This document shows positions 5,708-60,490 of a stretch of DNA of 64,000 bases, piece by piece; position 1 is the first letter of the stretch; every line of letters begins with the position of its first letter. Position numbers and translations under genes: made by a program. The notes under the pieces were generated by a model. The model searched no databases, had not been told where the DNA came from, and saw only the letters and a program-made list of their open reading frames with translations. The DNA is from Candidatus Woesearchaeota archaeon. GTDB lineage: Archaea > Nanobdellota > Nanobdellia > Woesearchaeales > WJIZ01. The stretch spans positions 10,584-74,583 of the forward strand of contig WJIZ01000041.1 in assembly GCA_014729995.1 (NCBI GenBank), given 5' to 3'.

Positions 5708-7459
5708 ATGCAGTACAGCGATTTAGTTGGTGTTTATAATTCCCTTAGCTCCACCTCTAAAAGGCTGGAAAAAACCAGGATATTATCAGAGCTTTTGAAA
5801 AATTTAAAACCCGATGAAGTCACCAGCGTAATTCTTCTGCTTCAGGGAAGGATCTTTCCCTCCTGGGACGAAACAAAGCTTGGGATAGCCTCTAAATTGG
5901 TTGTAAAGGCAATCAGCAAGGCTACTGGCATTTCTCCGGCAAAGATAGGGCAGGACTGGAAAAAAACAGGCGATTTGGGCAAAACAGCGCAGAACATGGT
6001 AAAAAAGAAAACCCAATCAACACTCACAACTAACCAGCTTACAGTGGATAAGGTTTTCAAAAACCTAAAGAAACTGGCAGGCTTGGAAGGGATTGGCTCA
6101 ATAGACAGGAAAATCCAGCTCATAGCAGAGCTGCTGACATCTGCACAGCCGGAAAGCGCAAGGTACATAGTAAGGACACTGCTGCAGGATTTGAGAGTCG
6201 GAGTAGGCGAGGGCAGCTTAAGGGATGCCATAGTCTGGGCTTTTTTTTCAAAGCAGTGTGCAATAGGCATCAATGACGCTGAGCTTGAGATAGGAAATCG
6301 GGAAGAATACAATAAGCATGTCGGCGCAGTGCAGCAGGCCTACGACATCACTAATGATTTTGCCGTTGTGGCAGAGATAGCAAAGAAATCAGGCCTGGAA
6401 GGATTGTTGAACCAGGAGCTTTTAGTCGGAAAGCCCGTAAAAGTGATGCTCGCTTTGAAGGCCAATGATGCTGAAGAGGCGCTTGAAAGGGTGGGCATTC
6501 CTGCAGAAGCAGAATACAAGTTAGATGGATTCAGAATCCAGGTTCATAAAGACAAAAAATGCATAAGGCTCTTTACCCGCAGATTAGAGGATGTTTCAGC
6601 GCAATTTCCAGACATAGTAAAATATGTCAGGGAGCATATCAAGGGAAATTCATTTATTATTGATTCAGAAGCAGTAGGCTATTCCCCAAAAACAGGGAAG
6701 TATCTCCCGTTCCAGAGCATCTCCCAAAGAATAAAGCGCAAATACAACATAGAGGACATGGCACGGAAATTTCCCGTGGAGCTGAACATATTTGATATAT
6801 TATATTACGAAAAAAAGAATCTTCTGAAAGAGCCCTTCAGCAGCAGGAGAAAATTGCTGGAAAAAATTGTTCACGGGAAAGAGAAGCAGATAGTCCTGGT
6901 AAGGAAGCTGATAACAAAAGACCCGAAAGAAGTAAGGAAGTTCTTTAATGAATCCGTAAAAGCAGGCAACGAGGGATTAATGCTGAAAAACCTCAACTCC
7001 CCCTATAAGCCAGGCGCAAGGGTGGGCCACATGGTCAAGCTCAAAGCAACAATGGAAAACCTCGACTTAGTCATAATCGGGGCAGAATGGGGGGAAGGCA
7101 AAAGGGCAGAATGGCTTTCATCTTACAGGCTGGCGTGCAGGAACGAGGAAGGAAAATTGCTTCAAATCGGCAAGGTCTCCACAGGCCTGAAAGAAAAGGA
7201 AGAGCAGGGATTGACTTTCCGCAAGATGACCTCTTTGCTGAATCCCCTCGTTATTTCAGCAAAAGGCAGGGAAGTAAAGGTAAGGCCGGAAATCATAGTG
7301 GAAATAGCTTATGAGGAAATACAAAAGTCTCCGACTTATTCATCCGGTTTTGCGCTGAGGTTTCCGAGGATAATAAGATTAAGGACAGAAGAAAGAAGCG
7401 CCGAAGACATAACTGATTTGGATTATATCGAAGAGATCTACTACAGCCAAAAGAAATAA
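5708..7459 (+). CDS. lig: ATP-dependent DNA ligase
   Basis: Adenylation motif EYKLDGFRIQVHKD (KxDG), a conserved OB domain, and the archaeal N-terminus MQYSDLV. The start was chosen at 5708 rather than the track start 5474, which overlaps the antisense gene. Confidence 0.9.
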   Translation: MQYSDLVGVYNSLSSTSKRLEKTRILSELLKNLKPDEVTSVILLLQGRIFPSWDETKLGIASKLVVKAISKATGISPAKIGQDWKKTGDLGKTAQNMVKKKTQSTLTTNQLTVDKVFKNLKKLAGLEGIGSIDRKIQLIAELLTSAQPESARYIVRTLLQDLRVGVGEGSLRDAIVWAFFSKQCAIGINDAELEIGNREEYNKHVGAVQQAYDITNDFAVVAEIAKKSGLEGLLNQELLVGKPVKVMLALKANDAEEALERVGIPAEAEYKLDGFRIQVHKDKKCIRLFTRRLEDVSAQFPDIVKYVREHIKGNSFIIDSEAVGYSPKTGKYLPFQSISQRIKRKYNIEDMARKFPVELNIFDILYYEKKNLLKEPFSSRRKLLEKIVHGKEKQIVLVRKLITKDPKEVRKFFNESVKAGNEGLMLKNLNSPYKPGARVGHMVKLKATMENLDLVIIGAEWGEGKRAEWLSSYRLACRNEEGKLLQIGKVSTGLKEKEEQGLTFRKMTSLLNPLVISAKGREVKVRPEIIVEIAYEEIQKSPTYSSGFALRFPRIIRLRTEERSAEDITDLDYIEEIYYSQKK

Positions 7460-7484
7460 ATAAAGATAAAATTCACGATATAAA

Positions 7485-7835
7485 ATGGAAGAAAAAAGGC
7501 AGGATTTCAGCCAGCATTTCATCCAGCTGGTTATCGGCCTGCAGTCAACAGCATGGATGGCAATGGGCAAGCAGATGAATCCGCAAACAGGAAAACAGGA
7601 AGTTAACCTTGATCTGGCAAGAGACAGCATAGACACGTTGCTCATGCTCAGGGAGAAGACAAAAGGCAACCTGACCGAGACAGAAAAAGGCATTCTAGAA
7701 AATGCAATGCAGGATCTGGAGCTGAATTTTATTGAAACAAGCAAAAAGGAAGGGAAGCCAAAAGTGAAAAAACAAACAGAAGAAAAAGACAGCAAGAGAT
7801 ATGAAGCAGAAAAAAAGAAAACCGGCAAACAATAA
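7485..7835 (+). CDS. DUF1844-family small protein
   Basis: The pattern NP.TGK.E.NL.LA...ID.L.ML..KTKGNLT is as in DUF1844. Confidence 0.45.
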   Translation: MEEKRQDFSQHFIQLVIGLQSTAWMAMGKQMNPQTGKQEVNLDLARDSIDTLLMLREKTKGNLTETEKGILENAMQDLELNFIETSKKEGKPKVKKQTEEKDSKRYEAEKKKTGKQ

Positions 7836-7978: not shown

Positions 7979-8434
7979 ATGGCAAGAATGCACTCAGGGG
8001 CAAAGGGAAAGTCAGCTTCAAAAAAGCCGCATGATAAGACAGCTTACTCATGGCTGAGCTATAAGCCGAAAGAAGTTGAGCTATTGGTAATAAAGATGGC
8101 AAAGGAGGGCAAATCACCATCCCAGATAGGCCTCACTCTAAGGGATGCTTATGGTATTCCGGACATAAGAAAGCTTCTGAAAAAAAAGATATCATCTGTC
8201 TTGAAAAGCAAAAAGCTTCTTGCAGAGCTTCCCGAAGACCTGCTGAGCCTGATTAAAAAGGACGTTGCTATAAACAAGCACCTTGAGTCAAACAAGCAGG
8301 ATAAGGCTGCATTAAGAGGGAAACAGCTTACTGAATCGAAGATTAAGAGGCTTGCTAAATATTACAAAAAAACCGGAAGGCTGCCTGAAGACTGGAAATA
8401 CAATCCAAAGCAGGCAAAAATGTTCGTAGAATAA
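7979..8434 (+). CDS. rps15: 30S ribosomal protein S15 (archaeal uS15/S13e type)
   Basis: MARMHS..KGKS.S N-terminus and the S15 C-terminal domain. Strong SD upstream. Confidence 0.85.
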   Translation: MARMHSGAKGKSASKKPHDKTAYSWLSYKPKEVELLVIKMAKEGKSPSQIGLTLRDAYGIPDIRKLLKKKISSVLKSKKLLAELPEDLLSLIKKDVAINKHLESNKQDKAALRGKQLTESKIKRLAKYYKKTGRLPEDWKYNPKQAKMFVE

Positions 8435-8468: not shown

Positions 8469-9461
8469 ATGGAAAAATTTGATGTAGTTATAGTCGGCGC
8501 AGGCCCCGCAGGCCTGAAAGCAGCAGAAGTTCTTGCAAAAAATAAGAAAAAAGTCATAGTTCTTGAAAAAAACAAAGTAATAGGTCCCAAGGTATGTGCT
8601 GCAGGCATAACAGAGAAAGACCTGAAATACATACCAAAAAGGCTTATTGAAAGATTTTTTAATTCCTTCCTGGTAAACAACAAGCTCAGAATAAAATACA
8701 ATTTATTTACAATAGAAAGGGAAAAACTGGGCAGGTATCAGCTCAGGCAGGCAAGACAATCAGGCGCAAAAATTCTTAAAGATACTTTTGTTAGGGAAAT
8801 CTCGCAAAAATATGTAGAAACAAGCAAAGGCAGATTTTATTTTAATTATCTTATAGGGGCTGATGGCAGCAATTCGAAAGTGAGAAGTTTTCTGAAATTA
8901 AAATCTGAAGTGTGCTGCCTTGCGATACAGTATAAGATAAATAAAGTGGAAAAAGACATTAAGGTCTTTTTTGATCCTGCGCAGTATTCTTTATGGTACT
9001 TGTGGGTATTCCCGCACAAGGACTATACATATATAGGAGTAGGAGCTTCGATAGGCATGCATATCCATCTGAGAAAGAAATTAGACAGCTTCATGCAGGA
9101 AGAAAACTACAGTGCATCAGACTTTGAAGCTGCATTGATAAATGTCGATTACAGGGGCTATAAGTTCAATAATATTTATCTTGTTGGCGATGCAGCAGGA
9201 TTTGCCAATCCTCTAACCGGCGAAGGAATTTACCAGGCTCTAGTCAGCGGAGAAGAAATAGCAAAAAAGATACTTATTCCAGAATATCATAGCAGAAAAT
9301 TAACAAAAATCATAGCTACAAACAAAAAGCTAAGCAATATAATCGGTTTATTCAAAAATCAACCAAGACTTTTTAAACTTATCTACATGCTCATTTCTAA
9401 ACTAAAAAAGTCTAAGCTCTTACAGAGACATGCAATCGATTTTTTACAATATGAAAAATAA
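8469..9461 (+). CDS. FAD-dependent oxidoreductase, geranylgeranyl reductase family
   Basis: N-terminal FAD fold DVVIVGAGPAG..AA. Overall GGR-like, though shorter than canonical. Confidence 0.7.
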   Translation: MEKFDVVIVGAGPAGLKAAEVLAKNKKKVIVLEKNKVIGPKVCAAGITEKDLKYIPKRLIERFFNSFLVNNKLRIKYNLFTIEREKLGRYQLRQARQSGAKILKDTFVREISQKYVETSKGRFYFNYLIGADGSNSKVRSFLKLKSEVCCLAIQYKINKVEKDIKVFFDPAQYSLWYLWVFPHKDYTYIGVGASIGMHIHLRKKLDSFMQEENYSASDFEAALINVDYRGYKFNNIYLVGDAAGFANPLTGEGIYQALVSGEEIAKKILIPEYHSRKLTKIIATNKKLSNIIGLFKNQPRLFKLIYMLISKLKKSKLLQRHAIDFLQYEK

Positions 9462-10458
9462 AGAATTAAGCGAATGCTGGAATATCTTGCCGAAAGTTTC
9501 TAGAAGCTTCTCTTTATGCATAAAACTACTGCCTCATCCCTTGGATGATCGGATGATGCTTTCTTATCTTATCTTCCGGATTGTGGATACAATAGAGGAT
9601 TCTGAAATAAAAAAACAGCAAAAAAAAAGATTATTTGATCTTTTTCTGGATACTCTCTCGCAGCCCCGCTTTCTTTCATATCAGTCAAAGAAATGCAGCT
9701 CTGCGCTTCTTCAGAATCTCACCTATTCATACGAGGAGATACTATTAAGAAATCTTGATGCAGTATTAAAAGTATATTTTGCCACTCCCGAAAAAGAGAG
9801 AACCTCAATCCTCAGGAGGGCAAAAGAAATGGCTGAAGGAATGTATAAATTCCAGACAAAAACGATCAATACCTTTGATGAACAGAATGAATACTGCTAT
9901 TATGCCGCGGGTCTTGTCGGATATTTATTTAACGACTTATTCTTTTATAATAACATACTCAGCAAAAAGCAAGCAGGCCGCCTGATAGAGCATGCTAAAA
10001 GATATGGATTAGCATTGCAGAAAGTGAATATAATAAGGGATATCGTAAACGATGCTCCAGATAGAAAATATTGGCCGATAAAACTGCTCAAAAAGTATAA
10101 TTTGGATTATAAAAGCCTTCTTCTCACAAAAAACAGGAAGAAAGCAGTAAATGTCCTTAATGAAATGATTAAGGATGCCTTGCCTTTCTTGGACAGCGGC
10201 ATTGATTATGTTAAGGCTTTGCCCAGAAATGCCTTGAAAGTCAGGGTTTTTTGTCTTATCCCTTTATTTATGGCAGTACAGAACTTTGTCAAATGTATTA
10301 ACAACAGGAATGTCTTTGAAAAAAAAGTAAAGCTTACCAGGCCTTCGGTGGCTGCAATAGTAAGAAAATCCTATCTCTGTGGGTATTCAAATTTCCTTTT
10401 GGATAAATGGTATAATAAAAATATGAAGAAAGCTAGGGCATCATTTGCTCCTGCTTAA
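9451..10458 (+). CDS. squalene/phytoene synthase family (head-to-head prenyl condensing enzyme)
   Basis: SRSF motif, YCYYAAGLVG, and NIIRDIVNDAPDRKYWP. Confidence 0.75.
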   Translation: MKNKELSECWNILPKVSRSFSLCIKLLPHPLDDRMMLSYLIFRIVDTIEDSEIKKQQKKRLFDLFLDTLSQPRFLSYQSKKCSSALLQNLTYSYEEILLRNLDAVLKVYFATPEKERTSILRRAKEMAEGMYKFQTKTINTFDEQNEYCYYAAGLVGYLFNDLFFYNNILSKKQAGRLIEHAKRYGLALQKVNIIRDIVNDAPDRKYWPIKLLKKYNLDYKSLLLTKNRKKAVNVLNEMIKDALPFLDSGIDYVKALPRNALKVRVFCLIPLFMAVQNFVKCINNRNVFEKKVKLTRPSVAAIVRKSYLCGYSNFLLDKWYNKNMKKARASFAPA

Positions 10459-11520
10459 CATAAAATCCGCAAAGCCATAAAAGAATTCAAGCGCTTTCTT
10501 GTTGATCTTCGCATCTTTCAGTTCTCTTTTTCCCTTTTCTATTTTTTTCTTTGCCAAATTCTGCACATACTCCAGCGCTCCTGTTTCTTCCATAGCTTTA
10601 ACAACCTTGTCAATCTGTTCTGAAGAAGCATCCTCCTTTCCCAAGACTTTTTTTATCTCTTCTTGCTGCTCCTCACCAGAATTCTCCAGCGCCTTTATTA
10701 TCAGCAAAGTTCTTTTCCCTTTCCTTATATCCTCGCCATACTTATTTTTATGCTCTTTATTAACAGATAATATATCATCCTGCAGTTGAAAAGCAGATGC
10801 TGCTGATTTCGCATATGAGCTAAGTGCTTTAAGCTCCTTTCCTCTAGCATTTCCTAACTTTGCTCCAATCATAATAGAGCTCAAAAAAAGCTCTCCGGTC
10901 TTTTTCCAGCTCATGCTCATGTAGTCTTTTTCATTTATGTCCCTTCTCTCGAAATAATTGTCCATGATCTGGCCCTCATTCACAATCATATAGCATTCAT
11001 TGTAAATTTCCAGCGCTTCCTTAACGCAGCTCTCTCGGAATTCTGAATCAAGGATACATTCGCAGCCCATGGTGAACAGGATATTGCCGCCGCATATTGC
11101 ATTAGCAACAGCAAACCTGGAAGACTCTTTGCTGAATAATGCTCCTTCATACTGCATTTCCCTGTTTTTATCAATGAAATAGTCTCTGAATTTCTTATGC
11201 ATTGTCGGGCTATCCCTCCTATATTCATCTTCATCCATGACATCATCATGAACTAATGTAGCACTATGCAAAAATTCAACACACAAACCTGCCTTTTTTA
11301 TTCTTCCATCAATTTTTCCGGTAACAGCAAAATATCCCATAATCAAGGCAATTGGCCTGAGCCTTTTCCCGCCGCATAGGACATAATCCTTCATATATGA
11401 ATAGCTTAATCTAATGAATTCATCAGAGCAATTTTTGATTCTACCATCTAAATAAAGATTTAATTCACTGTCAACAATTTTTCTGTATTTTTCCAGCACA
11501 GATTTAAATGACATTTTCAA
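10441..11520 (-). CDS. idsA: polyprenyl (geranylgeranyl) diphosphate synthase
   Basis: GGKRLRP, first DDxxD in LVHDDVMDEDEYRR, second in LQDDILS. Confidence 0.8.
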   Translation of the reverse strand: MKMSFKSVLEKYRKIVDSELNLYLDGRIKNCSDEFIRLSYSYMKDYVLCGGKRLRPIALIMGYFAVTGKIDGRIKKAGLCVEFLHSATLVHDDVMDEDEYRRDSPTMHKKFRDYFIDKNREMQYEGALFSKESSRFAVANAICGGNILFTMGCECILDSEFRESCVKEALEIYNECYMIVNEGQIMDNYFERRDINEKDYMSMSWKKTGELFLSSIMIGAKLGNARGKELKALSSYAKSAASAFQLQDDILSVNKEHKNKYGEDIRKGKRTLLIIKALENSGEEQQEEIKKVLGKEDASSEQIDKVVKAMEETGALEYVQNLAKKKIEKGKRELKDAKINKKALEFFYGFADFMLSRSK

Positions 11521-13135
11521 TACGTTGGACTACTTTGCTGATTATTCTGTCAGGAGTGCTTGCTCCTGCCGTTATACCAATATTTTCCTTGTCAAAAAAC
11601 CATTCGCTCCTTATCTCTTTTTCTGTTTCTATATGCCTTGTTTCGCAGTACTGCGAGCATGTCTCTTTTAGTCTTTTGGTATTGGAGCTTATCTTGCCTC
11701 CTATCACAATCATTATGTGGCTCTTCTTTGCCAGGGCTATAGCACTCTCCTGCCGGTTCTTTGTTGCTGCACAAATAGTATCGATTACTCTAATATCCTT
11801 CCCCCTTTTTTTCAAGGCATTAGAAATTTCACTGAATTTCTCAACAGAGCGAGTAGTCTGAGATACAACAGTTGAGCATTCTAAATCCTGTTTGTCAATA
11901 TTTTGTATATCACTGATTATACTGTAATTATGAAGATTTCCCGCTATTCCCTTGACCTCAGTGTGCTCTTCATCTCCAAAAATCAATATCTTTCTGCCTT
12001 TCTTTTCCTCTTTCTTGGTAATTTCATGCACTTTCTTCACAAGGGGGCAGGTAAGGTCGATAACTTTAAGGCCTTTACTCTTGATATCCTGTATCCTGCT
12101 GTCTTTTATCCCGTGTGCAGTTATGACAATTATGCCTTTGTCAATGCCCCTGTAAGCATCTATCATGCTGACCCCTTGCTCCTCAAGCTCTTTGACAACA
12201 GTGGGATTGTTGATCAGATTGCCCAGAACATAAACTCCTTTAGTCTTATCGAGCTTATTTATTTCATCAATCGCTCTCTTGACCCCAAAACAAAATCCCA
12301 TCTCATGGGCAAGCTCAATTTTTTTATTCAAAGTTGAAGACAGATAAGCTTTGGGATATTTCTGCTTTGCTTTTTCATAAATTTCTTCTGCCTTTTCCTC
12401 TTCTAAAAACAAGCCAAAAACCGAGCTCCCGCTTCCCGTCAATAGAGAATCCGGGCCAAGTTCTTTTCTAATCTTTTCCAAACCGGAATATTTGCTGGAG
12501 CTACTAAATTCAAAATCATTATGCAGATACTGTAAATCATAATCCTTTATGAATTTTTCAGAACTGTTGCTTTTTCCAGTCTTAGAATAATCAAGCGCTG
12601 AATAAGCTTCTTTTGTGCTCACATGAATGCCCGGATAAACCAAAACAGCATAGTGCTTCTCCAAGTCCTTTAGCTTCTCTACTTTCTCTCCCCTGCCTTT
12701 CCCTATGCATGTCCCCCCCAATATATGAAAAGGGACGTCCATGCCTATCTCTTTTCCCAGGCTGGCAAGCTTTTTCTTTGGCAGTTTCAGGCCCCAGAGA
12801 ACATTCAGCCCCTTAAGCACAGCTGCAGCATTGGAACTTCCTCCTGAAAGCCCCGCACCAACAGGAATATTCTTTTTGAGCTTTATCTCAACACCTTTTT
12901 CAACATTGAATTTCGCCTTCAGCAAGGAAGCAGCACGGTAAGCAATATTATCCTCATTCTCTAATTCCCTTGCACTGCATTCAAGCTTAATCCTGTCTGA
13001 ATCCAGCCTAACCAATTCAATCTCATCAAATAGGCTTATCTGCTGGAAAACAGTCTCTATATCATGGAATCCGTCATCCCGCTTTCCCAGTATATCCAGT
13101 GTAAGATTGATTTTAGCGTAGCTTTTAAGTTTCAT
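11504..13135 (-). CDS. ispEH: fused IspE-IspH: 4-diphosphocytidyl-2-C-methyl-D-erythritol kinase fused to 4-hydroxy-3-methylbut-2-enyl diphosphate reductase
   Basis: N-terminal GHMP kinase (KINLTLDILGKRDDGFHDIETVF, PVGAGLSGGSSNAAAV, GSGSSVFGLF). C-terminal LytB/IspH (GFCFGVKRAI, TCPLV, VVSQTT, ICAATKNRQ with the three cluster Cys). Confidence 0.85.
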   Translation of the reverse strand: MKLKSYAKINLTLDILGKRDDGFHDIETVFQQISLFDEIELVRLDSDRIKLECSARELENEDNIAYRAASLLKAKFNVEKGVEIKLKKNIPVGAGLSGGSSNAAAVLKGLNVLWGLKLPKKKLASLGKEIGMDVPFHILGGTCIGKGRGEKVEKLKDLEKHYAVLVYPGIHVSTKEAYSALDYSKTGKSNSSEKFIKDYDLQYLHNDFEFSSSSKYSGLEKIRKELGPDSLLTGSGSSVFGLFLEEEKAEEIYEKAKQKYPKAYLSSTLNKKIELAHEMGFCFGVKRAIDEINKLDKTKGVYVLGNLINNPTVVKELEEQGVSMIDAYRGIDKGIIVITAHGIKDSRIQDIKSKGLKVIDLTCPLVKKVHEITKKEEKKGRKILIFGDEEHTEVKGIAGNLHNYSIISDIQNIDKQDLECSTVVSQTTRSVEKFSEISNALKKRGKDIRVIDTICAATKNRQESAIALAKKSHIMIVIGGKISSNTKRLKETCSQYCETRHIETEKEIRSEWFFDKENIGITAGASTPDRIISKVVQRIENVI

Positions 13136-13184
13136 CCGGAAGAGATATTATAGAATCCTTTTTAATTTTTATTAAAAAGAAAAA

Positions 13185-13373
13185 TTATTTCTTCACATTA
13201 GCTGCCTTTGGTCCCCTATCGCCCTGCTCAACATCAAATTCAACTTCATCATTATCATCCAGTGTAACGCCCTCTGGAAGGGCTGTCTGGTGGACAAAGT
13301 ATTCCTTTCCGTCTTCGCCGGCTATGAAGCCAAAACCCTTCATTCTGTTGAAGAATTTTACATTGCCTTTCAT
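13185..13373 (-). CDS. csp: cold-shock protein (CspA family, OB fold)
   Basis: KGNVKFFN..KGFGFI and the RNP motif FVHQTAL. Confidence 0.8.
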   Translation of the reverse strand: MKGNVKFFNRMKGFGFIAGEDGKEYFVHQTALPEGVTLDDNDEVEFDVEQGDRGPKAANVKK

Positions 13374-13463
13374 TTATTTTGCCTCCTGTAATTTTTATCA
13401 GAACTAGTTTACTTAACAGTTACTGATTATAGGGGGATGATATGCTGCCATATATAAATTCTC

Positions 13464-14630
13464 CTATTTTTTATTCAGGCTGACAACACAAAAGCACTGC
13501 ATTCCAAGCCCCTTGCCAAATGCGGAAAGGCCCTCCCCTGTTGTCGCGGTTACCCCTATATTCTCTTCGGAAATATCCAAGATCCCGGCAAGGCTTTCCT
13601 TTATCTTGTCCTCAATAGGCAGTATCCTGGGCCTGCTCCCCTCCAGCATTATCCCTATATTCCCTATAGAATATCCTCTCTCTTTCATTATTTTCAATAT
13701 TACTTTCAAATATTCCCTGCTGTCCTTAATCCCCTTTTCGCACATATCATCTGCATAATGCGAGACGCTTTTCTCACCCAGCCCCTGTGCAACAGCGTTG
13801 AACAATGCATGCAATATAACATCTCCGTCGGAATTGGCTTTGAAGCCTTTCTCGCCTTCAACAGCAAAGCCGCCAAGCGTCAGCTTCTTGTCTTTATCCT
13901 CCTCCTTTACAAACCTGTGGCTGTCTGAGCCGAATCCAATCCTCGAATTCTTGAGCAGTTTATTCGCGAATTCCAAATCATTAGGCAGCGTTATCTTGAT
14001 ATTTTCATAAGGGCATTCAATCATCTTGACCTTTTTACCCAGCCTTTCAACAAGTGAAGTGTCATCCGTACCAATATACTCTTCAGAAAAAGCCTTCTTA
14101 AAAGCCCTGATTGCAGTCCCATACCTTATCGTCTGCGGGGTCTGTACCTGCCACAATTTCTTCCTGTCGATTGTTCGAATAACAAACCCTTTCTCATCAA
14201 CTTCCTTGACAGTATCCCTTGCCTTAAAACCGACAACAGCTGCCTCGTATTTCTTAGCAGCTTCGATTGAGTCAATTATAGTTTTCTCGTCAATAAATGG
14301 GTTTACCCCATTATGAATAACAACGATGTCATCAGCCTTAGCATCTTCCATGGAAATCAGCCCATTATAAACAGAATTCTGCCTTTTCTCCCCTCCCAGA
14401 ACAACTTTTTCCACCTTATTCAATTGATATTTCTTCTTTAAAGCAGCTGTCTCATCTTTATCCTCCTGCCTGGCAACAAGTACGATTTTGTCTATAGCGC
14501 CCGTATCATTAAACACCTTTATTGTGCGGGCCAACACCGGCTCCTCATCCAATAAAAGAAATATTTTGTTCACCTCAGAATTCATCCTCTTGCCGATTCC
14601 GGCTGCAGTTATTAAGGCATAGTTAGTCAT
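13464..14630 (-). CDS. ispDF: bifunctional IspD/IspF: MEP cytidylyltransferase fused to MEcPP synthase
   Basis: N-terminal ITAAGIGKRM (IspD). C-terminal RIGFGSDSHRF..GHSDGDV (IspF). Confidence 0.85.
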   Translation of the reverse strand: MTNYALITAAGIGKRMNSEVNKIFLLLDEEPVLARTIKVFNDTGAIDKIVLVARQEDKDETAALKKKYQLNKVEKVVLGGEKRQNSVYNGLISMEDAKADDIVVIHNGVNPFIDEKTIIDSIEAAKKYEAAVVGFKARDTVKEVDEKGFVIRTIDRKKLWQVQTPQTIRYGTAIRAFKKAFSEEYIGTDDTSLVERLGKKVKMIECPYENIKITLPNDLEFANKLLKNSRIGFGSDSHRFVKEEDKDKKLTLGGFAVEGEKGFKANSDGDVILHALFNAVAQGLGEKSVSHYADDMCEKGIKDSREYLKVILKIMKERGYSIGNIGIMLEGSRPRILPIEDKIKESLAGILDISEENIGVTATTGEGLSAFGKGLGMQCFCVVSLNKK

Positions 14631-14862
14631 TTTTACCTTCTACCATCTTTTTTATTGCTTCCTCTACTTTAGCGCTCATATTGAAGCCATGATTTCTGCA
14701 AAATTTTCTAAACTTACTTGCAACACCTTTATCCAAGGTGAAATTAAGCCTTTCTTTTGTTCTTATCCTTCCTGTTTTTTCAAACTCTACCAGGGCATCC
14801 AGCATATCTTTATCCTGTTTTGCCACTCTGTCTGCAATTCTCATAAACCTACTTGATGACAT
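14623..14862 (-). CDS. ribbon-helix-helix (CopG-like) small protein, putative antitoxin partner of Doc
   Basis: 79 aa. RHH-like LNFTLDKGVASKFRKFCRNHGFNMSAKVEEAI. Overlaps the doc stop by 14 nt. Confidence 0.4.
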   Translation of the reverse strand: MSSSRFMRIADRVAKQDKDMLDALVEFEKTGRIRTKERLNFTLDKGVASKFRKFCRNHGFNMSAKVEEAIKKMVEGKND

Positions 14863-15193
14863 TTTTTATTTTCTCTTCTATTCTTTTTATGCTTTTTATT
14901 CTGTTTGTAGCAATATCAGCAACTAGCTTAACTACTTTATCTTTGTAAGCTTCATACCCTTCATATTCAATATAAGACTTAATCAACAATGCAGTTGTTC
15001 TTTTATTGCCGTCCTCGAAAACATGATCTAAATTTATAGCCCTGACCGCATAGGCTAATGCCTTAATCCAATTTTCTGTTCTTCTGGCGTAACTCAATGC
15101 AAAATCCAGGCTTTGCTCATTCCTAAAGCAAGTGTGCTCTTTAATTTTCTGGTTTAATGCAAAAATGTCTTTCTTTGTAAGGGTAAATTTCAT
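14849..15193 (-). CDS. doc: Doc (death-on-curing) / Fic-domain toxin
   Basis: Fic/Doc motif HVFEDGNKRTTALL. 114 aa. Confidence 0.7.
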   Translation of the reverse strand: MKFTLTKKDIFALNQKIKEHTCFRNEQSLDFALSYARRTENWIKALAYAVRAINLDHVFEDGNKRTTALLIKSYIEYEGYEAYKDKVVKLVADIATNRIKSIKRIEEKIKNVIK

Positions 15194-15221
15194 TTAAGTG
15201 TGTATAAATGTGTATTGATAT

Positions 15222-16352
15222 TTAAATTTTTCCTATATCCTTGACTTTTACTTTTCTGTTAATTTCCAATATCTCATCCAGCCCAGGATTTTTAATAATT
15301 TTATGTTCATCCATCGCTTCTTTAACCAATCTGGGAATATCCATAAATCCTATCTTGCCTTCCAGAAAGGCGCCGACAGCTATCTCATTTGCAGCATTCA
15401 TCACAGCAGGCATGCTCCCTCCCGTCTTGCCTGCAGAATAAGCATAAGAAAGACAGGGAAAACGAGATAAATCAGGCTTGGAAAAATTCAACTCACCTAC
15501 TTCAACCAGATCTAAACTCTTCAGATTATTAGATAAACGAAAAGGATGCGACAAAGCATATTGTATCGGAATCTTCATGTCAGGCCAGCCAAGCTGCGCT
15601 TTAACAGAAGTATCCTTAAACTCAACAAGTGAATGTATTATCGACTGAGGATGTATGACAACATCAATATTATCATAAGCAACACCAAAAAGATAGTGCG
15701 CCTCAATCACTTCAAGGCCCTTATTCATCAAACTAGCAGAGTCAATAGTTATCTTAGCCCCCATATTCCAGTTAGGGTGCTTAAGTGCATCAGCAGCTTT
15801 TAAGTTATTTATCTCCTCAATGCTTTTGTCCCTGAAAGCACCGCCTGAGCATGTAATAATCAATTTTTTAACATCCTCTTTCCTTTCTCCGTTCAGGCAT
15901 TGGAATATTGCACTATGTTCAGAATCAATAGGCTTCAGCTCTGCATTATTCTTCTCAACCAGCTCCATAACTATATCTCCTGCTGTTACTAAAGTCTCTT
16001 TATTCGCCAAAGCAATATTCTTCTTTGCCTTGATAGCTTCAACAGTCGGCTTTACTCCAATGCTTCCAACGAGAGAATTCAGAATAGTATCCGTGCTTTC
16101 CAGCTTAGCCAGTTTAATCAATCCATCCATGCCCGAATAAACAGGAATATCTAATGATACAGAATCAGCTTTATCTTTATCATAAACGCAGGCTGCTTCC
16201 GGCTTAAATTCCCCTATTTGTTTTTTTAATAAGGAAATATTGGAATTGCAAGCCAGTCCTTTAACCTTAAACTCAGAAGGATTATTTCTAATAACTTCCA
16301 GCGCCTGCGTTCCTATGCTTCCGGTGCTGCCTAAAATTGAAATATTCTTCAT
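15222..16352 (-). CDS. dxr: 1-deoxy-D-xylulose 5-phosphate reductoisomerase
   Basis: ILGSTGSIGTQALEV and the conserved C-terminal domain. Confidence 0.9.
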   Translation of the reverse strand: MKNISILGSTGSIGTQALEVIRNNPSEFKVKGLACNSNISLLKKQIGEFKPEAACVYDKDKADSVSLDIPVYSGMDGLIKLAKLESTDTILNSLVGSIGVKPTVEAIKAKKNIALANKETLVTAGDIVMELVEKNNAELKPIDSEHSAIFQCLNGERKEDVKKLIITCSGGAFRDKSIEEINNLKAADALKHPNWNMGAKITIDSASLMNKGLEVIEAHYLFGVAYDNIDVVIHPQSIIHSLVEFKDTSVKAQLGWPDMKIPIQYALSHPFRLSNNLKSLDLVEVGELNFSKPDLSRFPCLSYAYSAGKTGGSMPAVMNAANEIAVGAFLEGKIGFMDIPRLVKEAMDEHKIIKNPGLDEILEINRKVKVKDIGKI

Positions 16353-17386
16353 TTCATAATCTCCTTCAAAACCCTATCAACAACCTTATCCTTCCCAATC
16401 TTTCCTTTCTTCTCCCTATCAATATAGAGCAAAGCCCCATCCTTCCCCCCAACAACTCCAATATCAGATTCCTTAGCCTCTCCGGGCCCGTTAACAGCGC
16501 AGCCCATGACAGCAACTTTAACAGCTTTCTTAACATTGGCAGTTTTTCTTTCAATCTCCTCACATATAGAGGCAACGTCAATGTTAGACCTTGCGCAGGT
16601 CGGGCACGCAGTAACTTTAACTCCTCCTTGCCGCAAATCAAGGGCCTCTAAGATTTTCCAGCCCGCTTTTACTTCCTCTACAGGATCGCCGGAAAGCGAA
16701 ACCCGGATAGTATTCCCAATTCCCTCTTCAAGCAGGATTCCAATTCCAACAGCATTTTTGATTGTTCCGGTATAAACGCTTCCCGCTTCAGTAACTCCCA
16801 GATGCAGGGGATAGCTAAACCTTTTAGCAAAAATCCTGTTTGCCTCTATCATCTTATGCACATCACTTGCCTTTAGAGAAACAATAATATCAAAGAAATC
16901 ATTATCTTCTAATATCCTGATGTGGCGCGAAGCACTTTCCACCATGGCGCTGGCGGTTAACCCCAATTTTGCCTCAATATCCTTTTCAAGGCTTCCTAAA
17001 TTAACCCCTATGCGAATTGGAATCCTCCTTTCTTTGCAGGCCTTGGCAACTTCTTTTATCTTTTCCCTGCTCCCAATATTCCCTGGATTTATCCTTAACT
17101 TATCAGCATGCATGGCAGCTTCCAAGGCTATCCTGTAATCAAAATGCACATCTGCAGCCAGGGGGATATTTATCCCTTTCTTAATCTCCTTTAACGCTTT
17201 GGCGCTCTCCATATCCGGGGCCGAAACCCTTACAAGCTCGCATCCTGCTTTCTCAAGAGAACGAATCTGCCTTACAGTCGCTCCGGTATCCTTAGTATCT
17301 GTGTTTGTCATGCTCTGTACACTAATGGGAGCATTTCCCCCAATATGCATACTGCCAACTTTGATTTTTTTTGTTTTCATAGGCAA
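16349..17386 (-). CDS. ispG: HMBPP synthase IspG/GcpE
   Basis: GGNAPISVQSMTNT, CPTCAR, and MGCAVNGPGE. Confidence 0.9.
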   Translation of the reverse strand: MPMKTKKIKVGSMHIGGNAPISVQSMTNTDTKDTGATVRQIRSLEKAGCELVRVSAPDMESAKALKEIKKGINIPLAADVHFDYRIALEAAMHADKLRINPGNIGSREKIKEVAKACKERRIPIRIGVNLGSLEKDIEAKLGLTASAMVESASRHIRILEDNDFFDIIVSLKASDVHKMIEANRIFAKRFSYPLHLGVTEAGSVYTGTIKNAVGIGILLEEGIGNTIRVSLSGDPVEEVKAGWKILEALDLRQGGVKVTACPTCARSNIDVASICEEIERKTANVKKAVKVAVMGCAVNGPGEAKESDIGVVGGKDGALLYIDREKKGKIGKDKVVDRVLKEIMK

Positions 17387-17391
17387 GCTTT

Positions 17392-19257
17392 TTACCCAAC
17401 CATCTCCATTATCTTCCTCTTTATGCTTTCCTTATCCAGCCCGGCATCTTTTCTTAGCAGCTCAACATCGCCGTGCTCTATAAACCTATCCGGAATGCCC
17501 ATTCTCTCAACAGGCACATTAATGTGGTTATCCTGCAGAAGCTCAAGTACAGCTGAGCCAAACCCGGCCATAAGGGCATTTTCCTCGATAGTAAGCACTT
17601 TGCCGCATCTCCCGGCCTGCTCAATTATTCTTTTCTTGTCAAGCGGCTTGGCAAATCTCGCATTGACAACGCAGCAGTCAATCTTGTCCAGTTCCCCTGC
17701 AGCTTCCAGCGCAGTTGTAACCAGGGGGCCTATGCAGATAACAGCGATATCCTTTCCTTTCCTCAGAATCTTTGCCTTTCCACTCTTCACAGGCTTTGGA
17801 TTTTCATAAATCTTTCTTCCTTCTGCGCATCCCCTGGGATACCTTATGGCAGCAGGCCCCTCAAGTCCAGCAGCAGTCTTCAGCATCCTTCCCAGCTCAT
17901 TCTCGTCCTTTGGAGCCATAACAGTAAGATTAGGAATATTCCTCAAGAAAGAGATATCAAAAGCGCCATGATGGGTAGCGCCGTCCTCCCCGACCAATCC
18001 TGCCCTGTCAACAGCAAACACTACAGGAAGGTTCTGCAGGCATACATCATGTATTACCTGGTCATAGGCTCGCTGCAGGAAAGTTGAATATACAGCTACT
18101 ACAGGTTTGAAGCCCTGTGCAGCTAATCCCGCAGCAAAAGTTACTGCATGCTGCTCAGCAATTCCCACATCAAAAAAACGGTTAGGAAATCTTTCGGCAA
18201 ACTTATCAAGCCCTGTGCCTGTTGACATGGCCGCGGTTATAGCCACGAGCTTATCATCCTTAGCAGCCAGCCTGACAAGCATCCTGGAAAATGCCTCAGT
18301 ATAGCTTATCGCGCCCGCACACTTTATCTTCTCGCCATTAGCGACATTGAAGCTGCCGATGCCGTGGAACTTTGTTTTCTGTTCTTCAGCATATTGGTAG
18401 CCTTTTCCTTTTTTTGTACGCACGTGCAGCAATACAGGCCCCTTTATATTCTTGATATTATTAAGCGACTGTATCAGTTTCCCTATATCATGGCCGTCTA
18501 TAGGCCCGTAATACTTGAATCCGAGCTGCTTAAAAAGCATTCCCGGGCTGAATACCGCTCTCAAGGTGTCTTCAAATCCCAATGCTTTCTCTGCTGCCTG
18601 CTCACCCAGGGGAAAGCCTTTAAGTATATTCTCGAACCTTTTCCTTGTTTCATTGTATCTTGGGTTGGCAATCAGCTCACGCACATAATTGGAAAGCCCG
18701 CCGACATTCCTGCTGATGCTCATATCATTATCATTCAGGATAACAATAATGTTGCTCTTCAGATGCCCCGCATTATTCAATCCCTCAAAAGCCTCTCCTC
18801 CTGTAAGCGCGCCGTCTCCGATTACCGCAACAGCCTTATAATCCTCCCCCTTTAAATCGCGCGCCTTTGCAATTCCCAGTGCAGCGGAAATCGATGTTGA
18901 GCTGTGGCCTGTTCCGAAAGCATCATGCTCGCTCTCATCAATTCTTGGAAATCCTGATATTCCTTTATGCTGCCTCAATGTCTTAAATTTTCCTTTCCTT
19001 CCTGTCAGCAGCTTATGCGCATAACTCTGATGCCCTACATCCCACACTATCTTATCCTTAGGAGAATCAAATACATAATGCAGGGCGATTGCAAGCTCAA
19101 CCGCCCCAAGGCTTGGTGCAAGATGCCCCCCGTTTTTGGAAACAACATTGATTATCTCATGCCTTATTTCCCTGGCCAGCATGCCAAGCTGCTGCTTATT
19201 CAGCACCCTTAAGTCTGAGGGCTGCTTAACCATGCCTAAAAAATTAGTCTTCATCAT
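17392..19257 (-). CDS. dxs: 1-deoxy-D-xylulose-5-phosphate synthase
   Basis: GGHLAPSLGAVELAIALHYVFDSP.DKIVWDVGHQSYAHKLLTGR with TPP and transketolase domains. Confidence 0.9.
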   Translation of the reverse strand: MMKTNFLGMVKQPSDLRVLNKQQLGMLAREIRHEIINVVSKNGGHLAPSLGAVELAIALHYVFDSPKDKIVWDVGHQSYAHKLLTGRKGKFKTLRQHKGISGFPRIDESEHDAFGTGHSSTSISAALGIAKARDLKGEDYKAVAVIGDGALTGGEAFEGLNNAGHLKSNIIVILNDNDMSISRNVGGLSNYVRELIANPRYNETRKRFENILKGFPLGEQAAEKALGFEDTLRAVFSPGMLFKQLGFKYYGPIDGHDIGKLIQSLNNIKNIKGPVLLHVRTKKGKGYQYAEEQKTKFHGIGSFNVANGEKIKCAGAISYTEAFSRMLVRLAAKDDKLVAITAAMSTGTGLDKFAERFPNRFFDVGIAEQHAVTFAAGLAAQGFKPVVAVYSTFLQRAYDQVIHDVCLQNLPVVFAVDRAGLVGEDGATHHGAFDISFLRNIPNLTVMAPKDENELGRMLKTAAGLEGPAAIRYPRGCAEGRKIYENPKPVKSGKAKILRKGKDIAVICIGPLVTTALEAAGELDKIDCCVVNARFAKPLDKKRIIEQAGRCGKVLTIEENALMAGFGSAVLELLQDNHINVPVERMGIPDRFIEHGDVELLRKDAGLDKESIKRKIMEMVG

Positions 19258-19296
19258 ACACCCCGTACAGCCAGATTGGAATATCTTTTATAAATC

Positions 19297-20004
19297 TTGC
19301 CTTCGAAAACAAAAATCATTTTAAATCATTATATCTATACTTTAGATATGGATGAAATAGATGAGAAAATAGAAGAGCAGCCTGAGCCATGGTGGAAAGG
19401 CCCTATTACATACATTTTAGCAGTATTGCTGATATTGATGCTTGTTGTCTGGTATTTTCCCAGCCAGGCAGTGAAAATTGATCCGGAGCCGGCATACATA
19501 CCTGCAATAGGTGAAGTAATGCCAAAAAACCTTTCACCAGACACAGCTGCTGTCTACTCAAGAAGAGATTATTTGAAGCTGATCAAGCCGAACAATCCAG
19601 CAATTAAGCAGACTGCAGATAAAATAGTGGCAAAAGCCTGCAATTCTAACAAGCTATGCCATGCCAAGGCAATCTATTATTTCATACAGCGGAACTTCAA
19701 CTATGTTTCAGATCCAGCCGAATTTGAATATGTTAAGTCAGCAGAGGAATCTTTATTAACACAGGCCGGTGACTGCGATGATGCAGCTGTCCTGGCTTCA
19801 AATCTTCTGCAGGCAGTAGGAATAAGGACAAGATTCATATTCATCCCCGGGCATGTTTATATACAGGCATATCTGCCCGAAGCGCCCAAGCGGTATAAAA
19901 CAGAAAACAACAACTATGTAAGCATGGATCTTACATGCAACAATTGCGCTTTCGGGGAATTGCCTTTCAATAGCTATACAGCCAGCAAACAGGTTATTGG
20001 CTAG
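19297..20004 (+). CDS. transglutaminase-like domain membrane protein
   Basis: TM segment followed by GDCDD papain-like/transglutaminase core. Confidence 0.55.
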   Translation: MPSKTKIILNHYIYTLDMDEIDEKIEEQPEPWWKGPITYILAVLLILMLVVWYFPSQAVKIDPEPAYIPAIGEVMPKNLSPDTAAVYSRRDYLKLIKPNNPAIKQTADKIVAKACNSNKLCHAKAIYYFIQRNFNYVSDPAEFEYVKSAEESLLTQAGDCDDAAVLASNLLQAVGIRTRFIFIPGHVYIQAYLPEAPKRYKTENNNYVSMDLTCNNCAFGELPFNSYTASKQVIG

Positions 20005-27269: not shown

Positions 27270-27361
27270 GGGCCCGTAGTTCAGTGGCTACGGCTTTTGT
27301 CGCTATAAAGAACGTCTCCCTTACAAGGAGAAGGTCACCGGTTCAAGTCCGGTCGGGCCCA
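27270..27361 (+). tRNA. tRNA-Val(UAC) with an ~19-nt intron in the D-loop
   Basis: GGGCCCG/CGGGCCC acceptor. Anticodon arm TCTCC-CTTACAA-GGAGA. T-arm ACCGG-TTCAAGT-CCGGT. D-stem GTTC..GAAC separated by an oversized loop. Confidence 0.7.
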
Positions 27362-27366
27362 TTCTT

Positions 27367-27489
27367 GCGCCAGTTGTCCAGTGGTTAAGATACGGCCTTG
27401 CCACGCGCTAAGATTTCCTGCGGAAATCCGCTGGCTTTGCGCTAGCGCGCAAAGAGGCTGTGACCCGAGTTCGAATCTCGGCTGGCGCA
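27367..27489 (+). tRNA. tRNA-Gly(GCC) with a ~51-nt structured intron after position 37
   Basis: GCGCCAG/CTGGCGC acceptor. Anticodon stem CGGCC/GGCTG, loop TTGCCA + intron. The intron holds nested palindromes (CGCGCTAG..CTAGCGCG and GATTTCC..GGAAATC). T-arm CCGAG-TTCGAAT-CTCGG. Confidence 0.65.
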
Positions 27490-27540
27490 TACTTTTTTAA
27501 CAAATTTTATAAAGCACTTTCTTTTCTCAGTCCCTAATTT

Positions 27541-27660
27541 GGCCCCATAGCTCAGTCTGGTTAGAGCGCCGGTCTTATATGGCCACGTTCTAAGCATCTG
27601 GCTCGAAGAGAGCCGGAGGTCCGGAGTTCAAAATCATCGATGAAAGTCTCCGTGGGGCCA
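27541..27660 (+). tRNA. tRNA with two introns (anticodon-loop ~31 nt and T-loop ~14 nt). Anticodon reads UAU (Ile) if the first intron is canonical, so identity is uncertain.
   Basis: GGCCCCA/TGGGGCC acceptor. D-arm GCTC-AGTCTGGTTA-GAGC. Anticodon stem CCGGT/GCCGG. T-stem CGGAG/CTCCG enclosing a 21-nt loop TTCAAA[..]T. Confidence 0.6.
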
Positions 27661-32136: not shown

Positions 32137-32287
32137 AATAAATTTCCAAAAATGCTATCGCCCCCAATTTTGTTTTAGATATACCAATTCTAAAAAACAC
32201 AAACAAATAGGCGATTTAATGCGTACTTGATACAGCTATCAAGTACAGGAAGGAAACAATCCCGACAATTTTAATTGCGACTATTAA

Positions 32288-33795
<1,508 letters not shown>

Positions 33796-34004
33796 TTATT
33801 TTCATAAGCATCATAGGAGATACCCATGGGCTTGAGCGAACTTCGAGCTTTGCTCGAGGGCTTGTAAGCTTTGCTTACAAAAGCAAAACTCATATGGGTT
33901 GATAAGGGCGAAGCCCTTATCGCAGGATCACATCCTTTCCTTTTTAATGCAAAAGGAATTGTTTCCTTCATTTTTCATATTTGATGAGCATTTCGGCCTT
34001 TCAA

Positions 34005-34102
34005 GGGCCCGTAGCTCAATGGTATTTCAAGTTATGCTTGAAACATGAAAGAGCGTCGCCCTTGCAAGGCGGAGGTTTCGGGTTCAAATCCCGACGGGTC
34101 CA
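34005..34102 (+). tRNA. tRNA-Ala(UGC) in the 16S-23S spacer, with a ~26-nt insert in the D-loop
   Basis: GGGCCCG/CGGGTCC acceptor. D-stem GCTC..GAGC around a 33-nt loop. Anticodon arm TCGCC-CTTGCAA-GGCGG. T-arm TCGGG-TTCAAAT-CCCGA. Confidence 0.7.
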
Positions 34103-34279
34103 TATGCCTATGCAACATTTTACAAAATGTTGCATATTTGCTTCAGCCCAAATTGGCATATATCATATTCATTTTATCATAAATCATCGTCAATGCATAT
34201 TGGCGATGGTTCGGACGAGACGCCTTCTTTCCTGGGAGGTAGAATATCTATTCATGTTGATGAGGCCATGCATTAAAGT

Positions 34280-37230
<2,951 letters not shown>

Positions 37231-59116: not shown

Positions 59117-59117
59117 G

Positions 59118-59585: not shown

Positions 59586-59586
59586 G

Positions 59587-60477: not shown

Positions 60478-60490
60478 AAATCATCTGAAA

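Follow-up and report, generated by a model that had tools for sequence, protein, structure and literature searches.

The DNA analysed here is a 64,000-nt stretch (hereafter the window) of contig WJIZ01000041.1 from a Candidatus Woesearchaeota archaeon, and it carries a gene cluster for the complete bacterial-type methylerythritol phosphate (MEP, or 1-deoxyxylulose 5-phosphate, DOXP) pathway of isoprenoid synthesis. The cluster is very probably a genuine chromosomal locus of the Woesearchaeota, within the DPANN archaea, and the pathway that it encodes is predicted to be functional. Archaea are the textbook mevalonate organisms, and isoprenoid supply underlies the 'lipid divide' that separates Archaea from Bacteria; an archaeal clade run on the MEP pathway is therefore a natural experiment in the cross-domain swap of a core pathway, and it bears on the lipid supply of DPANN symbionts. 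The central finding is already known for this lineage, and the window is a further instance of it rather than a discovery.

Genes were called from a listing of the open reading frames (ORFs) and from scans against Pfam and NCBIfam, with the results collected in Table 1. These scans revealed all seven activities of the pathway (KEGG M00096), each above the curated NCBIfam equivalog cut-off and with full-length coverage of the model, and in Dxs the domains DXP_synthase_N, Transket_pyr and Transketolase_C were identified. An earlier note on this DNA had claimed that all the MEP steps are encoded together on one strand. This was confirmed, the genes spanning positions 11504-19257 of the minus strand, and the comparison of the ORFs with the MEP families that it had proposed gave end-to-end matches for all seven domains. 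The ispG and dxr genes overlap by 4 nt, and ispEH and the downstream polyprenyl diphosphate synthase gene by 17 nt, which points to translational coupling. The description of the cluster as one compact operon held as regards its completeness and common orientation, but not its continuity, as it is interrupted by a putative Doc-type toxin gene, a 79-aa ORF and a cold-shock gene.

From family membership, Dxs would condense pyruvate with glyceraldehyde-3-phosphate, and the operon as a whole would cover the route from these two substrates to isopentenyl diphosphate (IPP) and dimethylallyl diphosphate (DMAPP), with four of the seven activities carried by two polypeptides, IspDF and IspEH. As IspH yields both IPP and DMAPP, an isomerase would be dispensable.

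The host context is archaeal, as the earlier note had held. The same contig carries archaeal 16S and 23S rRNA genes in one operon, and the genes on the left flank of the cluster encode a Hel308-type helicase domain 4, a diphthine-synthase-type methylase, FtsZ, an ATP-dependent DNA ligase and ribosomal protein S15 with an S13e N-terminal domain, while those on the right flank encode SRP54/FtsY, prefoldin and phosphoribosyl pyrophosphate synthetase. Rfam tRNA matches of 98-123 nt at 27293-27660 and 34005-34102 of the plus strand were mostly missed by ARAGORN run with bacterial settings, suggesting intron-bearing archaeal tRNAs. In addition, the IspEH, Dxs and squalene-synthase (SQS)-like proteins of the window showed 100% identity to NCBI proteins named 'Candidatus Woesearchaeota archaeon', which are encoded together on a contig of 89,332 bp.

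The composition of the cluster was compared with that of its flanks, as the note had also suggested, and no break was detected. Tetranucleotide profiles taken in 5-kb windows across the cluster correlated at 0.92-0.97 with the remaining window, the only real dip being the rRNA operon. The codon-usage correlations of the MEP genes ranged from r 0.51 to 0.84, compared to 0.73 ± 0.09 (minimum 0.46) for 35 background genes, and their G+C content at third codon positions was inside the background range.

The arrangement is also conserved in related loci, where synteny and archaeal neighbours recur in six independent assemblies from different samples. The order dxs-ispG-dxr-ispDF-ispEH is whole in loci L004, L090 and L091 and partial in L005, L008, L009 and L093, which cover only part of it. 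In GCA_023140175.1 (L004, L005 and L007), a transglutaminase-core gene is followed by dxs-ispG-(Fer4)-dxr-(Dus)-ispDF-(MNT pair)-ispEH-prenyl synthase-DUF116 and further on by S15; the transglutaminase-core homologue of L004 (46% identity) lies divergent beside dxs, as in the window. In L090, dxs-ispG-dxr-ispDF-ispEH-prenyl synthase is followed by a convergent SQS-like gene and then by S15, and in L091 (GCA_043806015.1) a tight five-gene core lies between the genes for isoleucyl-tRNA synthetase (IleRS)/NreA and alanyl-tRNA synthetase (AlaRS). The order in L093 (GCA_054040355.1) is dxr...ispDF...ispEH-prenyl synthase-DUF116-S15, followed by the genes for archaeal elongation factor 2 (aEF-2), nucleoside diphosphate kinase, S28e and L7Ae. 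In L008 and L009 S15 is likewise retained beside the MEP cluster, and in the latter a geranylgeranyl-reductase (GGR)-like gene adjoins S15. S15 is thus the neighbour of the cluster in L004/5/7, L008, L009, L090 and L093, and the archaeal flanks seen in the relatives comprise S15, aEF-2, S28e, L7Ae, NreA and aminoacyl-tRNA synthetases.

Table 1. Features of the window, with positions counted from its first nucleotide; scores are in bits and are given against the cut-off of the model where there is one
Feature	Coordinates	Strand	Length	Evidence and remarks
Ribosomal protein S15, S13e type	7979-8434	+		PF08069 and PF00312; archaeal boundary marker
Putative GGR-family flavoprotein, short form	8469-9461	+	330 aa	TIGR02032 155.4 vs 158.8, positions 1-291 of 297
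SQS-like head-to-head prenyl condensing enzyme	9430-10458	+	342 aa	PF00494 138 bits, E 5e-40
trans-Polyprenyl diphosphate synthase	10441-11520	-	359 aa	PF00348 E 5e-53
ispE-ispH fusion	11504-13135	-	543 aa	TIGR00154 245 vs 139; TIGR00216 269 vs 188
Cold-shock protein, CSD	13185-13373	-	62 aa	PF00313 74 bits, E 9e-21; in the gap between ispDF and ispEH
ispD-ispF fusion	13464-14630	-	388 aa	TIGR00453 212 vs 181, residues 5-225; TIGR00151 144 vs 116, residues 230-386
79-aa ORF, candidate antitoxin	14623-14862	-	79 aa	Overlaps doc at its end and ispDF at its start; weak, sub-threshold CcdA match, E 0.041
Putative Doc/Fic-family toxin	14849-15193	-	114 aa	PF02661 26.8 vs 24; between dxr and ispDF
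dxr, DXP reductoisomerase	15222-16352	-	376 aa	NF009114 545 vs 461
ispG (gcpE), hydroxymethylbutenyl diphosphate (HMBPP) synthase, short two-domain type	16349-17386	-	345 aa	NF001540 458 vs 345; PF04551 E 5e-143
dxs	17392-19257	-		TIGR00204 849.5 vs 466, model positions 3-615 of 616
A/T-rich TATA-like element	19286-19295	-		Read from the sequence; about 30 nt upstream of the dxs start codon
Transglutaminase-core protein	19297-20004	+		PF01841; divergent from dxs; other boundary marker
Archaeal 16S-tRNA-23S rRNA operon	32287-37240	+		Rfam; same contig
Archaeal small-subunit rRNA	32287-33793			RF01959 1418
tRNA in the 16S-23S spacer	34005-34102	+		Rfam
Archaeal large-subunit rRNA	34272-37240			RF02540 2516

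Several points weigh against the reading of the locus as a functional pathway with the history proposed below. To our knowledge, there is no archaeal MEP enzyme with experimental evidence of activity, and the finding of no mevalonate-pathway gene in the scan of 58 ORFs from outside the cluster has the small scope of the 64-kb window. Among the MEP genes, dxr (r 0.51) and ispG (r 0.60) have the least typical codon usage. The three prenyl-chain proteins encoded next to the cluster all score below their equivalog cut-offs: the polyprenyl synthase is below every one in NCBIfam (NF041003, 182.5 bits vs. 500; NF040698, 192 vs. 468), the SQS-like protein reaches 176.2 bits with TIGR01559 (cut-off 286.75; compare 69 with HpnD and 49 with CrtB) and the GGR-like protein is just under the cut-off of TIGR02032. 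Finally, all trees were made by neighbour-joining with Kimura-corrected distances, and their deep branching is tentative, with low bootstrap values at many deep nodes; in that of Dxs all named archaeal sequences fall into one group of 83 sequences, which no named bacterium enters, but the bootstrap of this group is 15%, which becomes 88% when one extra unnamed sequence is included.

To judge from its conserved residues and its predicted structure, the IspE-IspH fusion is intact. The 4-diphosphocytidyl-methylerythritol kinase occupies approximately residues 1-268 and the HMBPP reductase approximately residues 272-543, practically without a linker. In 23 fusion proteins with 45-65% identity to that of the window, positions C282, C363, C455, H341, H391, E393 and T428 of the IspH half are invariant, as are K8, D133 and the glycine-rich loop G93-S100 of the IspE half. 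From their mapping to Escherichia coli residues, we take C282, C363 and C455 to be the [4Fe-4S] cysteines of IspH and the other invariant positions to be catalytic residues. The AlphaFold2 model (pLDDT 91.7, pTM 0.87) has halves that superpose in Foldseek on IspH (3dnf/3f7t) and on IspE (1uek). IspDF associates with IspE in some bacteria, so that, by analogy, a multi-enzyme assembly of IspDF and IspEH is plausible here.

The fusion is visible in public annotations, with about 26 IspEH clusters at 90% identity in the protein database, and it may be undescribed in print. It was not found in the searched literature on the MEP pathway of Woesearchaeota and Micrarchaeota, including PMC8421398, and a search of the literature for the fusion by name gave only acronyms with other meanings. 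In the survey of IspH fusion partners by Rao et al. (2015, PMC4746011), which lists RPS1, UbiA, CMP kinase, helicase, fructose bisphosphatase as well as UDP/PNP phosphorylase, IspE is absent, and the papers searched on MEP diversity give only IspDF. Like IspDF, the fusion of the window joins non-consecutive steps of the pathway, and as in the IspH-RpsA and IspH-UbiA proteins of that survey its IspH domain is intact with the three cluster cysteines, whereas the partner is different, being an N-terminal IspE. A modest addition of the present analysis is that IspEH offers a discrete character by which the partner lineage can be traced, and for part of the operon this character leads away from Firmicutes.

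The pathway itself has a longer record in these archaea. Castelle et al. (2021, PMC8204110), who credit the first report to Castelle and Banfield (2018), described it as widespread, with its genes co-located, among 52 Woesearchaeota genomes that form a monophyletic clade. According to Huang et al. (2021, PMC8421398), it is confined to Woesearchaeota subgroups F and J, with ispD and ispF fused, and the MEP route is the only one in the phylum; the lineages found nearest were Firmicutes for dxr and ispG and Ca. Nealsonbacteria for ispDF, and geranylgeranylglyceryl phosphate synthase (GGGPS) and digeranylgeranylglyceryl phosphate synthase (DGGGPS) were missing. The pathway was also found in Woesearchaeota and Nanoarchaeota metagenome-assembled genomes (MAGs) from oxygen-deficient zones (PMC10936187), and a complete bacterial MEP pathway was reported in three orders of Micrarchaeota, acquired separately after the orders had diversified (PMC12892359, 2025), although in these genomes the mevalonate pathway and the genes of lipid synthesis are retained as well. 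The supposition of the earlier note that the MEP route had been at most a sporadic observation in DPANN archaea is contradicted by these four papers. The published Woesearchaeota clusters resemble that of the window in their host, in the co-located complete pathway, in the fused ispD/F and in the bacterial origin inferred for them. As the mevalonate pathway is absent from the phylum according to this literature, the MEP pathway would stand in for it. Two differences were noted: the Woesearchaeota papers searched make no mention of SQS-like and GGR-like neighbours or of embedded toxin and cold-shock genes, and the nearest relatives are Firmicutes (dxr, ispG) and Ca. Nealsonbacteria (ispDF) in the literature, compared to a lineage labelled Spirochaetota for dxr, ispF and ispEH here. 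Outside the Woesearchaeota, the closest Dxr in a representative library of 1.84 billion proteins was P0364 (60% identity to that of the window), from 'Candidatus Micrarchaeia archaeon' MAGs with contigs of up to 278 kb, so that MEP genes occur in a second DPANN class, in agreement with the 2025 paper. In the neighbour-joining tree, P0364 fell outside the clade of Woesearchaeota and bacterial-fusion Dxr.

Next to the MEP genes are three genes of prenyl-chain metabolism, which the earlier note had described as directly joined to them. They are indeed present, but only the polyprenyl synthase gene shares the orientation of the operon, the SQS-like and GGR-like genes being encoded on the plus strand and convergent with it. 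The best PDB matches of the polyprenyl synthase are archaeal geranylgeranyl diphosphate (GGPP) synthases (5jfq, 1wy0), and its Asp-rich motifs, DDVMD (D92, D93 and D96) and D248-D249, are invariant in the alignment of its homologues (A2). In the sequence FLHSATLVHDD, the residue at -5 from the first Asp-rich motif is a non-aromatic Ala, with Ser in the orthologues, and directly after this motif there is an insertion of 25 residues that, in the same alignment, occurs only in Woesearchaeota orthologues. In the chain-length work of Ohnuma and Wang, a bulky aromatic residue at -5 reportedly limits the product to C20. Therefore, the name 'GGPP synthase' given in the note is unproven, in view of the scores below all equivalog cut-offs, the Ala at -5 and the clade-specific insertion. 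The chain-length region of the Woesearchaeota enzymes is thus unusual, even though their best structural relatives are archaeal GGPP synthases.

The second protein is closer to squalene synthases than to CrtM, CrtB, phytoene synthase or HpnC/D, its best PDB matches being the squalene synthases of Trypanosoma cruzi and human (E ~3e-33, compared to 3e-8 for CrtM). Its motif DTIED aligns with the first motif of squalene synthases, whereas the second reads DIVND instead of the DFYED of T. cruzi (canonical D(Y/F)xED); because of this second motif and the score below the TIGR01559 cut-off, it is named here squalene-synthase-like. Homologues with 46-60% identity belong to DPANN archaea, mainly Micrarchaeota, and in L090 the gene occupies the same position. 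For the GGR-like protein, the best PDB match was the digeranylgeranylglycerophospholipid reductase of Thermoplasma (3oz2, 397 aa; E 1.4e-14), with the stretch LVGDAAG...P(L/I)TG(E/G)GI aligned, and the homologue beside S15 in L009 shows 29% identity.

Judged by their homologues, the downstream prenyl-chain genes are archaeal host genes that were joined by the recruited bacterial module and not co-transferred with it, since the relatives of the SQS-like protein are in DPANN archaea and the prenyl synthase is of archaeal type. The alternative that the polyprenyl synthase and SQS-like genes form part of a bacterial block was ruled out by the taxonomy and identity of these homologues. As all three proteins are below the NCBIfam equivalog cut-offs, the products assigned to them are guesses. 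The archaeal-type polyprenyl diphosphate synthase, translationally coupled to ispEH, would elongate the C5 units, and the SQS-like enzyme and the putative GGR-family flavoprotein would probably make a head-to-head C30-type isoprenoid and saturate it partly. Squalene-type head-to-head condensation followed by partial saturation is the best reading that we infer for this branch. That the enzymes at the immediate output of the operon resemble a squalene-type branch and not archaeol synthesis is a second modest addition.

This resemblance bears on the fate of the isoprenoids. The pathway could be real and yet not serve membrane lipids, if these were scavenged from a host while IPP and DMAPP went into neutral isoprenoids of the squalene type, dolichol-like carriers, the prenylation of tRNA or similar uses. 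Such a use has a little less than an even chance, and it can hold together with the reading of the locus as a functional MEP pathway. The neighbours of the operon are an SQS-like enzyme and a reductase instead of GGGPS and DGGGPS, although the former is below the squalene-synthase equivalog cut-off. The 58 ORFs scanned from the flanks of the cluster included none for glycerol-1-phosphate dehydrogenase, GGGPS, DGGGPS/UbiA or CarS, with a genome coverage that here amounts to 64 kb. The absence of GGGPS and DGGGPS from MEP-bearing Woesearchaeota (Huang et al., PMC8421398) and the presence of a cis-prenyltransferase near the L093 cluster point in the same direction, whereas a UbiA prenyltransferase lies near the MEP genes in some genomes (Castelle et al., PMC8204110).

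Regarding its origin, the operon would have been set up once, by bacterial transfer into the ancestor of a Woesearchaeota clade, beside the S15 gene, and would have descended vertically since. A single establishment is supported by the conserved gene order and position next to S15, by the grouping of the archaeal Dxs and by a clade of archaeal Dxr: the only four archaeal Dxr in the neighbour-joining tree form a 95% clade, which is sister (60%) to the Dxr of the bacteria with the IspEH fusion, to the exclusion of 93 other cluster representatives. Orthologues inside the Woesearchaeota clade share 48-80% identity, which together with the ameliorated composition suggests that the transfer is old. 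Later on, toxin-antitoxin genes, a cold-shock gene, Fer4 and Dus would have been inserted locally, and at least one gene, ispG, would have been replaced in place in one lineage. The IspG of the window (345 aa) is 75-80% identical to the orthologues of L005 and L090 and 58% to that of the Parcubacteria locus described below. In L091, the otherwise syntenic operon of a distant Woesearchaeote, the ispG slot (6512-7708) holds a 398-aa IspG with 39-41% identity to the window type, compared to 48-66% for the proteins of its neighbours, as if a xenologue had taken the place of the original gene.

Two types of bacterial cluster were compared with the operon. The first type combines hopanoid and MEP genes with an IspEH fusion and was found in L001-L003 ('Spirochaetota bacterium', from anaerobic digesters), L092 (GCA_041753395.1) and L087 (GCA_054919795.1). 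Their IspEH (542-544 aa, 45-50% identity), Dxr (56-59%) and IspF (63%) are similar to those of the window, and they carry DUF116, as do the archaeal L004 and L093. In contrast, they are distant in Dxs (49-52%), IspG (40-42%) and polyprenyl synthase (24-28%), and their gene order is different, starting with squalene-hopene cyclase (SHC): SHC-dxs-polyprenyl synthase-IDI2-DUF116-dxr-ispF-ispEH-ispG, with IspF not fused to IspD. Unlike these clusters, the window has no DUF116 (by tblastn), IDI2 or SHC. The second type is that of L011 (JBDRPV010000052.1) from Parcubacteria, of the candidate phyla radiation, which has its MEP genes together and IspDF fused, as in the window, with 58% identity in IspG and 56% in Dxs. 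However, its IspE and IspH are separate (41% each), its IspF half shows 45% identity and its order is ispH-dxr-ispDF-ispE-ispG...dxs.

The nearest bacterial relatives therefore differ from gene to gene: dxs, ispG and ispD resemble those of Parcubacteria or Bacillota, and dxr, ispF and ispEH are closest to those of the Spirochaetota-labelled lineage with hopanoid clusters. The Dxs of L011 (56% identity, compared to 49-52% for the Spirochaetota-labelled lineage) is a weak sister (55% bootstrap) of the archaeal group, and the best matches among named bacteria (57-59%) are Bacillota (Desulfohalotomaculum, Pelotomaculum, Thermoanaerobacter, Peptococcaceae) and a Nitrospirota MAG. For the IspF half, 63% identity was reached with the stand-alone IspF of L001 and L092 and 45% with that of Parcubacteria. 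The earlier note had proposed a single lateral acquisition from Bacteria. A bacterial origin and one establishment fit the data, but a single acquisition is too simple, as the nearest bacterial relatives vary by gene; the ispG xenologue of L091 also stands against it.

Among the matches listed, the Spirochaetota-labelled lineage is the only bacterial group with the IspEH fusion, and the scan of contigs yielded at least three archaeal loci, so that the taxonomic spread of the fusion among species representatives is under-sampled here. All fusion proteins formed one clade relative to the unfused bacterial IspH sampled, with bootstraps of 96% for the IspH half and 56% for the IspE half. When the two halves were concatenated and the tree was rooted on the Parcubacteria pair, the bacterial fusions formed a 92% clade nested among archaeal sequences (99% node), with L009 and L093 outside it; the mid-tree fusion proteins (P0012-P0025) were classed by their gene neighbourhood. 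We propose tentatively that the fusion marks a dxr-ispF-ispEH block, often accompanied by DUF116, that was exchanged between Woesearchaeota and the Spirochaetota-labelled hopanoid-cluster lineage, so that two or more bacterial sources would have contributed to a mosaic operon, in place of the single-donor Firmicutes block suggested by the literature; this is possible, though it is favoured by rather fewer chances than its contrary. Re-acquisition of MEP genes by Bacteria from DPANN archaea would fit the nested position of the bacterial fusions. The direction is put forward tentatively because the tree has one outgroup and long basal branches and was made by neighbour-joining.

The opposite extreme, one recent transfer of the whole 10.8-kb cluster, prenyl-chain genes included, from a single bacterial donor such as a Firmicute, is highly improbable. 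The compact co-oriented operon with its overlapping genes, the Bacillota and Nitrospirota matches of Dxs at 57-59% and the position of dxr and ispG near Firmicutes in the literature (PMC8421398) would agree with it. However, IspG (58%) and Dxs (56%) are closer to Parcubacteria L011 than to the Spirochaetota-labelled lineage (41-42% and 51%), to which in turn Dxr (59%), IspF (63%) and IspEH (48%) are closest, and the ispG of L091 is a different xenologue (39-41%). Moreover, the family of the SQS-like gene is a DPANN one, the archaeal-type polyprenyl synthase has only 24-28% identity to the synthase of the bacterial cluster, and the ameliorated composition and the 48-80% identity between orthologues indicate an old event.

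An artefact of assembly or binning, by which an archaeal contig would have gained a bacterial MEP operon in silico, is scarcely credible: the MEP genes are typically bacterial and dxs and ispG have a G+C content (0.44-0.47) somewhat above that of their neighbours, but both junctions are repeated in independent assemblies (that with S15 in L004/5/7, L008, L009, L090 and L093, that with the transglutaminase-core gene in L004), the five-gene core of L091 lies between NreA/IleRS and AlaRS, tetranucleotide correlations are 0.92-0.97 with codon usage inside the background range, and dozens of Woesearchaeota and Nanoarchaeota Dxs homologues form a group of their own. The contig is thus not the chimera that the earlier note had considered as a possible refutation.

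The genes embedded in the operon differ from those of the related loci. The putative Doc/Fic protein contains the sequence HVFEDGNKR, which fits the Doc motif HxFx(D/N)(A/G)NKR, and its score with TIGR01550 (34.1 bits) is under the cut-off of 38.65. The 79-aa ORF is placed downstream of doc, not upstream, and has no significant family match. The cold-shock gene at 13185-13373 is of bacterial type, with a KGFGFI motif. Neither doc nor the cold-shock gene has a counterpart in the related loci compared. In L004, another pair, an NTP_transf_2/MNT gene and a 161-aa ORF, is inserted between ispDF and ispEH, suggesting from these two cases (doc with the 79-aa ORF, and the MNT pair) that the same operon junctions gather small mobile modules. 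The tolerance of the operon to toxin-antitoxin and other small-gene insertions at fixed junctions is a further modest addition.

Upstream of dxs, the TATA-like element ATTTATAAAA is a possible archaeal promoter, and its distance from the start codon would fit a near-leaderless dxs transcript, although TATA-like strings such as this are frequent at a genome G+C of about 42%. A scan for sigma-70 promoters and intrinsic terminators gave counts equal to those of shuffled sequence, the method not being applicable to archaea.

DUF116, a small cysteine-rich protein, was located in L004 (12699-13052), L093 (12724-13146), L001 (7843-8337), L087 (4864-5352) and L089 (63-389). The archaeal copies (L004, L093) are 29-36% identical to those of L001, L087 and L092, or 29-41% when L089 is included. 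It may serve IspG/IspH as an accessory protein, of redox or metal type. The ORF at 7485-7835 of the window was considered as a DUF116 candidate and rejected, as it corresponds to DUF1844; DUF116 was not detected by tblastn.

Elsewhere in the window, a dense set of redox and oxidative-stress genes at approximately 39.9-40.4 kb and 47.9-57.0 kb encodes rubrerythrin, an AhpC-type peroxiredoxin, ferritin, a thioredoxin/DsbD-like trio, a fused MsrA-MsrB and desulfoferrodoxin; a cytochrome-b5-like protein (49798-50160) and an FNR-like FAD/NAD oxidoreductase (55859-56578) were also detected. The sole Pfam match of a 679-aa protein encoded on the minus strand (29863-31902) is a GHKL-type HATPase_c_3 domain. 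A pyrimidine cluster at 58133-63143 of the plus strand comprises pyrB, pyrI, pyrD, a pyrK-like gene, a dihydroorotase-like amidohydrolase and a phosphoribosyltransferase, in agreement with reports of a higher biosynthetic capacity in Woesearchaeota that carry the MEP pathway.

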